Positions 21,001 through 24,000 of a DNA stretch of 34,435 nt are shown here, piece by piece (the first letter of the stretch is position 1; each line of letters starts with the position of its first letter). The position numbers were made by a program. The stretch comes from a virus (Duplodnaviria > Heunggongvirae > Uroviricota > Caudoviricetes), in the IMG/VR virus record IMGVR_UViG_2529293069_000011; one strand, 5' to 3'.

Positions 21001-24000
21001 CATCAAAGCATCCGAAGTGTTTACTCTTGCCATGGAATCCTAGCCTAACATTCCATTTTTTCTGTCGTTTGTGCCAAGTAACCCCTCTGCAACCTGATTT
21101 GCTATTCTTTCGGATCCTTATATTTCTTGAATTTTCTATTGGCAGGCATTCTCTTAAATTTTCTGGCCTATTGTCGGTCCTAATTCCATTAACGTGGTCA
21201 ATTTGACCAGCAGGCCAACGATTATGAGTTATGTAAAAAACTAAGACGTGAGTTTTATATCTACGCCCATCTATCATGATCATTGAATAACCGTTGGAAT
21301 CAAAAGCTCCAGCAACACTATTTAATGCTATCCTTCCCTGAGTGGGAACTTTCCATCTAAATACCCCGGTAGATTTATCGAAACTTAGTAACTCAAATAT
21401 CCTTTTAACAGTTAAATCTTCTCTTTTACGGTTACATCGTCTTCGAGCTGGTTTAGCCATCGCCTTCTTCCTCCGTAATGGTTTTCTGAATTTGGCCACC
21501 TGAACAGAGCTCACCAAAGCTATGGATGTCGGTATTTCCACAATACCAAGATGGCGAAAATAACTGCATGATAAGCCTCAGGGAAAAGGGAAGACACTAC
21601 CCCCGATAATTCAGAAACAAATCGAAATACATGAACTAAAGAAAAAATCACAACAAATAGAAATAGAAATAGAAATAGAAATAGAAATAGAAATATTAAA
21701 ACAGACCACTGTAGATTCAATCTGTCAATGCAACACCCCTTTCAATTATCTCTTTCGGTGTTTTGAACTTCAGTGTCTTTCTCGGTCTGTTGTTTAGCTG
21801 AGCAGCAACCAGATCTAGTTCATGTTGAGTATATTGGGCAAGACATGTCTTTTTAGGAAAGTACTGCCGAATTAGCCCATTTGTATTCTCATTTGTTCCC
21901 CGCTGCCAAGGACTCTGAGGATCGCAGAAGTAAACTTTAACGCCGGTGCTGACAGTAAATTCTAGATGTCTGGCCAGTTCCATTCCTCTGTCCCATGTCA
22001 GTGATTTTCTGAGTTCTGACGGTAAACTCAGGAATTTGTCGGTAAGAGCCTGATTTACTGAGACAGAATCTTTGCCCCTGAGTCTAAGGATGATCGTATA
22101 ACGTGATTTTCGGTCTACAAGTGTGGCTATATGAGAGTTTTTTGTACCTGAGACTAAATCGCCCTCCCAATGCCCCAGAGAGCGTCTGTTATCGATATTT
22201 CGGGAACGTTCGTGAATTGGTGTTCCGTTCACTATGTTAATCGTACCTCTTTCGCCTTTGCGGGTATGACGCCTGCCATGGCGAAGGCTATGCGACCGTC
22301 GCAGATGCTGTATATTCAGGTGGTGTAGCGCTTCACGGCTACGAAAGTACAGCGTTTTATAAATTGTCTCAGGTGATATTCGCAGCGTTTTTTGACGTGG
22401 TTTTGTTCGCCTTAACCATCCTGATATTTGCTCTGGAGACCATTTCATCTCCAGCTTTTCCAGAACAAGCTTTCGCAATGGTAAATTTTGATCCAGTAAG
22501 CACGGTTTTGGCCTTTTCGCCATTCTGTTGGCTCGGTTATTAGCATCAACAGCTTTGTAATAGCGTCTGCCCCGATTACGCTGAACTTCACGTGAGATCG
22601 TCGAAGGACTGCGATTCAGCGCAGTAGCTATCGCACGAATGCTCATTTTGGCTGACAAACCAGCTCGTATCTCCTCGCGCTCAGACAGTGTCAGGTGAGC
22701 TACAGCCCGCTTACGCTCATGGGGTTTTATGCCGCCAGTATCCCTTAACATAGTGAAGATCGTTCCGGGTTTTGAACCCAGGATATTCGCTATTTCACTG
22801 AAGCCTGTTCCGTTCTTCCATAGTTCAAAAACAGAGGCTTTTTCCTCTGCTGTAAATGTTCGTCTCATTCAAAAAACCTCCGCAACCCCATGTTTTCACA
22901 TAACTGTTGCGTTGACCAATTGAATCTACAACCACATTCCTGATGTCATACTCACTAAACAATTTTTCGACAACATGGTAGCTCATAGAACGTTATCGTG
23001 TAGACACCCTCTGCTACGTATTCGGTGTTCAGTGCAATATCTACAAATACTGGAAAAATCTAAAATCGAGGCAAGTTTTTGGTGATAACTATAGTTAGAC
23101 TATATTGACGACCTGATGTGCTGTATGTAATAACTAACAAAAAATATTTTCCATGGGATTTTTTATTTTAATGAAATGCAAAATATTTTTATCAATAGTT
23201 AGTATTATGGAAACCATTAATTCAGGAGGAAACTTGATTCCAAATTCAACTTCAAATAAAGGTTATGTATGCATTGACATGCAGTGTTCGTCAACCTCTG
23301 AACCAACAGCTTCTACCTCCAGCAACCGGAGTATTAAATTAGCCGCTTCCACAAATGTATATCCGATAACAAGAAACGACTCCGAGCTCACTCTGAACGA
23401 TTTTCTTGATAATAGCTCTTCTACGTCATCATTGGACTACATTAATGAATTGGGTTCTCAACTGACGTTAAATGATTTTCTTGACAACATAAAGACAAAT
23501 GAGGTGGATAGAACATGTACGGATGTGGTAATTAATATCCCACAAGAGATACAAACAAATACACAGGAAAATGATTTGTTATTATCCGATAAAAATAATT
23601 CAATATGCATTGAAATCGATGAAAGAATTACAAAAATCCTAACATGCAAGCAAAAATATCAACTGGACAGCATCATTCATGAAATTATACCAAAAGAGAA
23701 TGAGAGTGCAGAAACTGTTCTCCATCTTATGAGAGTTCTGAACGATCAATATCATCAGGTATATAATCAGTCAGGATGTTTTTATAAAGCCTATATGGCC
23801 ATACACAATAAAATCGAACAGATACTTCCATATGCGTTCAGAGCCGGAGGCGGAATCAGCATTCACTTGCTCATACAGGCATTATTTTTTAATGGCGACT
23901 ATAACAAATCACCTTCACAGTCTCAACAACCATCTTTATATACATCACCTTCTCCAACAATAAATACAGAAGCATTCTTAAGTAATGTATTATCACTAGA

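Follow-up and report, generated by a model that had tools for sequence, protein, structure and literature searches.

A probable hot-spot insertion of IS30 into an IS911-like relic with an expanded hexamer repeat in a lambdoid prophage

IS30 and its target duplication

The window analysed here is the whole of a 34,435-nucleotide (nt) stretch of DNA from a virus (Caudoviricetes), the IMG/VR record IMGVR_UViG_2529293069_000011, in which the interval between the genes ninG and ninE holds a complete copy of the insertion sequence IS30, with a hexanucleotide tandem repeat close to one of its ends, an HNH endonuclease gene on that same side and an AT-rich gene of 590 codons on the other. An initial annotation had presented this arrangement as a recent IS30 insertion in a hotspot of secondary insertions, beside a repeat unusual for a phage. 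The analysis that followed it up leads to a more specific explanation, which is considered very probable: IS30 would have entered, at one of its hot-spot sequences, a dead IS911-like relic in which part of the former orfA had already expanded into the repeat. The features of the element, its target and the repeat are as follows.

21710..22930, minus strand: complete IS30, 1221 bp, with the transposase read on the minus strand
21717..22868, minus strand: IS30 transposase gene, 383 amino acids (aa), intact, the lone long open reading frame (ORF) of the element
21710-21735: right inverted repeat (IRR) of IS30, adjoining the repeat and facing the HNH gene
22905-22930: left inverted repeat (IRL) of IS30, facing the 590-aa gene
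21708..21709, no strand: left copy of the 2-bp target duplication (AC), a single AC in empty sites
22931..22932, no strand: right copy of the 2-bp target duplication (AC), a single AC in empty sites
21655..21695, plus strand: (AAATAG)6.8 microsatellite, called by Tandem Repeats Finder (TRF; period 6, 6.8 copies, 100% matches, score 82)

The element has what is expected of the IS30 family in its length, its terminal inverted repeats, its transposase ORF with helix-turn-helix (HTH) and DDE domains, its identity to reference copies and its 2-bp duplication. Specifically, the terminal inverted repeats are 26 bp long and imperfect, with three mismatches (23/26 positions agree); one end reads TGTAGATTCAATCTGTCAATGCAACA and the other, as its reverse complement, TGTAGATTCAATTGGTCAACGCAACA. 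Since the transposase reads towards lower coordinates, the end at 22905-22930 is IRL and that at 21710-21735 is IRR. The transposase matches HTH_38 (1.6e-23) and rve (4.1e-14) in Pfam and transpos_IS30 in NCBIfam (276 bits against a cut-off of 80; E = 3e-82), and copies that carry the annotation ‘IS30-like element IS30 family transposase’ agree with the element at 100% over the whole 1221 bp. The inverted repeats, the 383-aa ORF and this identity confirm that the copy is intact, as initially described. Near-full-length IS30 (at least 80% of the element covered) occurs in 3,111 of 5,426 complete Escherichia coli genomes, at a median of 2 places per genome. IS30 in the window is thus familiar both as an element and in its behaviour, and what is of interest here is its context.

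An AC on either side of the element could by itself be a coincidence, with a chance of 1 in 16; it is a true target duplication because the empty site in relatives carries one AC only. In the Shiga toxin 1 (Stx1) phages AU6Stx1 and SH2026Stx1 the sequence runs ...AAAACAGACCACCACATTCCTG..., which is the window flanks joined without one AC, so that the empty site, AACAGACC-AC-CACATTCC, is shorter than the joined flanks by exactly 2 bp. Of the 33 related sequences compared, 28 have the same empty site, as do no fewer than 246 complete E. coli genomes. The comparison with related prophages that had been recommended at the outset is thereby made, and the direct repeat on which the claim of a simple insertion was based proves genuine.

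The junction specific to the window, with IRR beside the repeat, was not found in the 5,426 complete E. coli genomes, in IMG/VR or in metagenome contigs. Because this junction is absent from these collections, other IS30 copies match the element at 100% and the duplication is intact, the insertion is probably a recent, lineage-specific and simple event. Recency had been claimed from the start, with the caveat that junctions shared across distant lineages would weaken it; the search for such junctions returned none, and the abundance of empty sites lends the claim further support. A junction seen in no other genome or contig scanned, together with the multicopy nature of IS30, is also what could be expected if an assembler had misplaced one of several copies at this locus. 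That explanation is extremely unlikely, since both junctions are clean, the 2-bp duplication is perfect, target duplications are not created by misassembly, and the site is one that IS30 demonstrably uses elsewhere.

An IS911-like relic and its repeat

The DNA on both sides of IS30 is one dead IS911-like fragment (IS3 family) of ~360 bp, an identity that the initial annotation had overlooked. Its parts are the following.

21475..21709, plus strand: left part of the relic, with an IRL remnant, an internal deletion and an orfA remnant with in-frame stops
about 21479-21509: IRL remnant of the relic, 30/31 identical to IS911 nt 6-36 (blastn, E = 2e-10)
22933..23058, plus strand: right part of the relic, covering the last part of orfA and ~30 initial codons of orfB (...RYRVDTLCYVFGVQCNIYKYWKN)

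When compared by blastn with an IS911 reference rebuilt from an IS911::IS30 locus (L011), the relic is 69% identical to IS911 nt 163-460 over 318 aligned columns (E = 4e-31), and the sole large gap in this alignment is an 18-bp expansion of the repeat. There is no equivalent of IS911 nt 37-162 (a 126-bp internal deletion), and homology ends at nt ~460, leaving the DDE domain and IRR missing (about 790 bp). The rejoined flanks read in one frame as ...AMDVGISTIPRWRK, a stop, LHDKPQGKGKTLPPIIQKQIEIHELKKKSQQ(IE)nILKQTT/TFLMSYSLNNF...RYRVDTLCYVFGVQCNIYKYWKN (here and below a slash marks a junction), a translation that looks recognisably like OrfA followed by early OrfB of an IS3-family element. A tblastn search with this conceptual product hit IS3-family elements of 2,655 plasmids in two frames, with about 60% of the aligned aa identical. 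A Pfam scan of the conceptual translation gave no match, and the DNA homology to IS911 is therefore taken as the basis of the assignment.

In common with IS911 and the IS3 family, the relic retains the IRL, the HTH and leucine-zipper region of orfA, the orfA/orfB overlap and the start of orfB, in this order. In contrast to functional members, which have an intact orfA and orfB connected by a -1 frameshift at an A6G site, it has in-frame stops, the 126-bp deletion, an orfB of ~30 codons and a slippery site mutated to AAAACAG, and it lacks the DDE domain; an IS911-type IRL is present at one terminus, and IRR is absent. With these defects it is a remnant incapable of transposition, and it is a diverged relative of IS911 rather than IS911 itself. 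The tip of its IRL directly adjoins the ribosome-binding site (RBS) of the HNH gene.

The distance between the relic and IS911 also bears on whether IS30 arrived here by transposition at all. IS911::IS30 composites, as in K-12, are very common, and one of them could have been recombined into the phage as a block; the best match to the left junction lies in the 95-99% identity band in 2,192 of 4,128 records, a band read as IS911-type flank from sampled rows (about 96% in those listed). Such a transfer is scarcely credible for the window, whose flanks are 69% identical to IS911 as against 98-99.8% to the IS30-free relic of related prophages, and whose related empty sites differ by exactly the 2-bp duplication.

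The hexamer repeat, which the initial annotation had placed in direct contact with IS30 and measured at 42 bp, is real, but it measures 41 bp and has a 14-bp spacer (TTAAAACAGACCAC) between itself and the element. TRF finds no other tract of such kind in the window. In the orfA frame of the relic (frame-1 translation) it reads (ATA GAA)n, that is (Ile-Glu)n, and at the same position the leucine-zipper codons of IS911 are ATT GAA ATG GAA AAT GAA ATA, while those of a degenerate K-12-type copy are GAA ATA GAG AAT GAA ATA. The tract may thus have begun as a cryptic repeat within orfA that expanded once coding constraint had been lost. As a stretch of expanded former orfA codons, it is no longer the oddity for a phage genome that it had been taken for.

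Length variation of the repeat, which had been predicted and for which polymerase chain reaction across the tract had been suggested, could be followed in silico in 33 sequences (the window, the two Stx1 phages, E. coli O157:H7 TW14359 and 29 IMG/VR contigs). Lengths range from 27 to 105 bp (4.5-17.5 units) and form 14 length alleles, all congruent modulo 6, some of which contain interrupted units (AGAAAC, GGAAAT, AGAAGT). In 28 full-length rows of the E. coli survey the match lengths are 319-385 bp and differ by multiples of 6 only. Perfect head-to-tail units beyond chance and whole-unit length polymorphism in close relatives are the marks of a microsatellite or variable-number tandem repeat (VNTR), and units would be gained and lost by replication slippage. 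Four relic copies that are occupied by IS30 in the plus orientation, opposite to that of the window, carry 8.5, 9.5, 11.5 and 15.5 units; because the number of units varies to this extent within one group of insertions, the repeat mutates faster than the insertion sequence turns over.

Comparable loci are known from multiple-locus VNTR analysis (MLVA) of Shiga toxin-producing E. coli (STEC) of serogroups O157, O26 and O111, many of which are likewise perfect hexamer tracts with many whole-unit alleles. MLVA loci of very high diversity exist, e.g. O157-10 (PMC10062581). The present tract differs in being prophage-borne, and hence absent or in one or two copies per genome. A literature search for the hexamer, its rotations and O157 MLVA gave no link of the tract to a named VNTR locus.

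With such allelic diversity, a place on the nin transcript about 195 bp upstream of the HNH start, and gene callers that annotate a ‘hypothetical protein’ over the long alleles, the repeat could be suspected of being a functional contingency locus, which either tunes a promoter or RNA element of the HNH/nin genes or of the 590-aa gene or encodes a variable peptide. This is very unlikely. All length changes are multiples of 6 and switch no frame, a consensus scan finds no promoter-like site near the tract, the plus-strand frame is a stop-ridden relic, and the 66-aa ORF on the minus strand (21520..21720), the candidate for a variable peptide, has no Pfam family match. The number of units thus seems to alter neither a reading frame nor the spacing of a promoter, and the decay of orfA codons is a full explanation of the tract.

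In RefSeq, a ‘hypothetical protein’ is placed over the relic only where the repeat allele is long (E. coli genomes H83-H87 and H105-H108). These calls are probably gene-calling artefacts of the stop-free (ATAGAA)n / (CTATTT)n tract. The stretch is found in several hundred STEC genomes, and it should be annotated there as an IS911-like relic and not as hypothetical ORFs.

Reuse of the insertion site

The core sequence around the insertion point in the window is AACAGACCACCACATTCC. In K-12-like and CFT073 genomes IS911 itself is interrupted by IS30 at ...GAAATATTAAAAA(A)GGCTAC/TGTAGA, and the junction in the window, ...GAAATATTAAAACAGACCAC/TGTAGA, falls at the homologous nucleotide; the complete IS911::IS30 copies at two loci (L011 and L019) carry the identical AC duplication. 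IS30 also interrupts an IS600-like orfA and a third IS3-family orfA, both with Pfam HTH_Tnp_1, after ...ERDILKKA. Among IS30 right-end junctions in GTDB representative genomes, 12 of 14 lie within IS3-type orfA windows of this kind, those in the IS600-like and the third orfA, two further and unrelated genes, included.

The relic itself has been entered elsewhere. In O157:H7 TW14359 and three IMG/VR contigs, IS30 stands at the same left junction in the opposite orientation, truncated and with the right-hand DNA replaced, whereas strain 2014C-3011 and four other genomes have the matching right junction (IRR/AC TACATTCC), with IS30 again in the opposite orientation and truncated on the other side. 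About 278 E. coli genomes lose homology at the repeat, mostly O157:H7 among the rows sampled, and the opposite-orientation insertion is widespread. The truncated copies (L007 5228-6031 in TW14359 and L006 3186-4026 in 2014C-3011) have different internal break points and are joined to unrelated DNA, namely a bamE-domain gene and a tail J-protein fragment, so that IS30-adjacent deletions or rearrangements have remodelled these two prophages.

The initial annotation had attributed the insertion to the ninE-ninG interval as such, as a generally permissive place where IS30 landed by chance and was tolerated. Indeed, the interval holds extra, non-essential DNA relative to lambda and to the prophage of strain 493/89, and the insertion breaks no live gene. 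This part of the hotspot claim stands, but it leaves the IS30 site itself unexplained. A merely permissive region does not account for the use of one and the same AC, exact to the nucleotide, in both orientations, nor for the homologous positions of IS30 in IS911, in the IS600-like element and in other IS3-family orfA genes outside phages, and it is for these reasons an inadequate and unlikely explanation. Targeting of a sequence-specific hot spot explains the site better, and can be proposed with high confidence, with the relic site presumably recognised by the IS30 transposase. This agrees with the known behaviour of the element, which uses hot-spot sequences, attacks them with a 2-bp stagger and, as IS30A, interrupts IS911 in K-12 (PMC9333248).

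The closest parallel is provided by IS30A and IS30D in the IS911 of E. coli K-12. There, the element is 99-100% identical, has a 2-bp duplication and occupies the homologous position at the C-terminus of orfA (...ATATTAAAA..G.C.AC/), and the host insertion sequence is inactivated (PMC9333248). The window differs in that the host is an IS911-like element at 69% identity that was already dead, reduced to IRL and ~300 bp, and in that the site lies within the nin region of a prophage with an expanded microsatellite 14 bp away. A looser resemblance links the site to the lambda hot spot LHS (lambda 33244-33498, with insertion near 33290), which is likewise a phage-borne, sequence-defined target that is not an inverted repeat, with one central dinucleotide, and whose left half-site has, as in the window, an A-run and after it, a few bp short of the cut, bases that include G/C (...CCAATAAAAGTGGCGATAG...). 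LHS is at another locus (kil/cIII).

Several points weigh against the hot-spot reading. The 14 GTDB junctions are not independent, as several come from two K-12-like genomes, and the distinct IS3-type targets among them number about five. The opposite-orientation copies of the O157:H7 and 2014C-3011 groups could share one event, which leaves a minimum of two independent hits on the relic. By eye, the insertion site in the window is weakly palindromic. The source genome of the window is outside the collections searched, and the neutral effect on neighbouring genes proposed below comes from a crude consensus scan. Olasz et al. are said to have defined, in 1998, a 24-bp palindromic target consensus for IS30.

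Under the hot-spot reading, the history of the locus may be reconstructed as follows. A lambdoid prophage would already have carried a non-lambda block between ninE and ninG, consisting of the 590-aa gene, the HNH gene and, between them, the ~360-bp IS911-like fragment. Once coding constraint was lost, the imperfect leucine-zipper codons of OrfA could have become the perfect (ATA GAA)n tract, which then would have varied in 6-bp units by slippage. Later, IS30 would have transposed by copy-out/paste-in, through a circular or (IS30)2 intermediate, and cuts staggered by 2 bp would have produced the AC duplication. The target would have been the part of the relic that matches the OrfA C-terminus and the frameshift window (...ATATTAAAAnAGnCn/AC/...), a sequence hit repeatedly at the same nucleotide.

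A different arrangement was observed in a K-12-like genome, BHUCD01 (L004 4225-4255, near nanXY), where both ends of an IS30 copy carry the IRR sequence (GCATTGACAGATTGAATCTACA). IS911 orfA borders this copy on one side and an inverted IS600-like orfA on the other, each broken at ...ILKKA, and the copy looks like the product of end conversion and recombination between two hot-spot insertions.

Neighbouring genes and wider meaning

The block into which IS30 was inserted is bordered and accompanied by the following genes.

20308..20919, minus strand: ninG, downstream border of the inserted block (Pfam NinG, 3.6e-82)
20894..21460, minus strand: HNH endonuclease gene (Pfam HNH_3, 5.6e-11, and a weak AP2; PHROG 99)
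23234..25006, plus strand: AT-rich gene (about 32-37% GC), 590 aa, PHROG 9230, function unknown, convergent with the nin operon
25510..25692, minus strand: ninE, upstream border of the inserted block (position transferred from the AU6Stx1 annotation through an alignment)

The initial annotation had asked whether outward-facing elements of IS30 drive either neighbour. Fusion promoters of the IS30 type depend on a -10 at the right distance in the flank, and the internal antisense promoter leaves neighbours unaffected (PMC9330008). The outward TTGACA of IRR (minus strand, 21728-21723) faces the repeat and the HNH gene, and 16-18 bp past it lie GTCTGT, TCTGTT or CTGTTT, with no -10 among them; on the other side, the TTGACC of IRL faces the 590-aa gene, and the -10 position is taken by CATTCC or ACATTC. 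A sigma-70-like consensus scan returned no promoter-like site across either junction. A promoter fused from IS30 and either flank is accordingly rejected as far as the sequence can tell, there being no -10 partner and an empty scan. A terminator scan of both strands inside IS30 detected none. IS30 would most likely leave its surroundings unaffected, or slightly reduce pR-to-Q read-through by a possible polar effect.

Positions 1-20835 of the window are 99.97% identical to a prophage of strain 493/89 at the lambda attachment site (next to ybhC), whose nin region is a plain ninG-ninF-ninE-ninB. In the window, ninF is replaced by the HNH gene, the relic with IS30 and the 590-aa gene, a block which, IS30 apart, Stx1 phages and many STEC prophages share at 98-99% identity. 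The HNH gene starts with ATG at 21460, preceded by the RBS GGAGGA at 21469-21474, and is also annotated in SH2026Stx1 and TW14359. About 26 nt of this gene, which has an AP2-like part, overlap the start of ninG, and the gene takes the place of a lambda-type ninF. It resembles the insertion of a free-standing homing endonuclease.

The AT-rich gene on the other side of IS30 is present as initially described, but most likely starts at TTG 23234, which gives 590 aa, and not at ATG 23153, which had given 617; an AGGAGG lies upstream of the TTG, and PHROG 9230 is aligned from residue 28. Scans of its product against Pfam, PADLOC and NCBIfam were empty, a profile search of the PDB returned only noise, and the AlphaFold2 model is all-helical with a disordered, repeat-containing N-terminus, at low confidence (mean pLDDT 41.6). 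A homologue in Escherichia albertii, at 71% identity, is found in a small chromosomal islet next to a gene for an NleF-like caspase-inhibitor effector, and others occur in Salmonella (about 48% identity, where the gene alone forms an islet flanked by cdd and a DUF218 gene) and in Providencia. As a guess, the protein could be a secreted effector or a membrane-active protein.

Two further features of the window were noted in passing. A gene for an LpxR-family lipid A deacylase (18475-19434, plus strand) is an opposite-strand moron by the annotation of the 493/89 prophage. On one side it has the Q antiterminator gene (17311-18000) and on the other, beside ninI, 72 bp that remain of another antiterminator gene (19578-19649, minus strand); its position marks a mosaic junction. 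A tandem repeat of a 20-bp unit in 3.8 copies (or of a 39-bp unit in 2.0 copies), TCCCTC...GGGA, occupies 28445-28522 inside the ORF of a 312-aa replication protein (27931-28869, minus strand); we take it to be, most likely, the iterons of the lambdoid origin.

The lineage-specific IS30 junction beside a fast-evolving 6-bp VNTR provides a clean and datable marker in STEC-type prophages, with possible uses in strain typing and in tracing prophage recombination, even if its practical value is small. The current understanding of IS30, of lambdoid phages and of microsatellites is left unchanged. What the locus adds is an example in which the choice of site by IS30 appears to be driven by sequence, and the recurrent nesting of IS30 in IS3-family elements may merit a systematic count. 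A wider proposal is offered tentatively, as one that we hold to be a little less probable than its opposite: that in enterobacteria IS30 may find its main natural target in IS3-family elements, at the conserved C-terminal orfA/frameshift window (...ILKKA, ATATTAAAAAAAGCnRC). If this is true, IS30 would systematically nest in rival insertion sequences and inactivate them, a ‘safe haven’ that spares host genes; its recognition of such windows would reach even a dead prophage relic at 69% identity, in both orientations, and the (ATAGAA)n tract would have arisen incidentally from the same decayed coding region.

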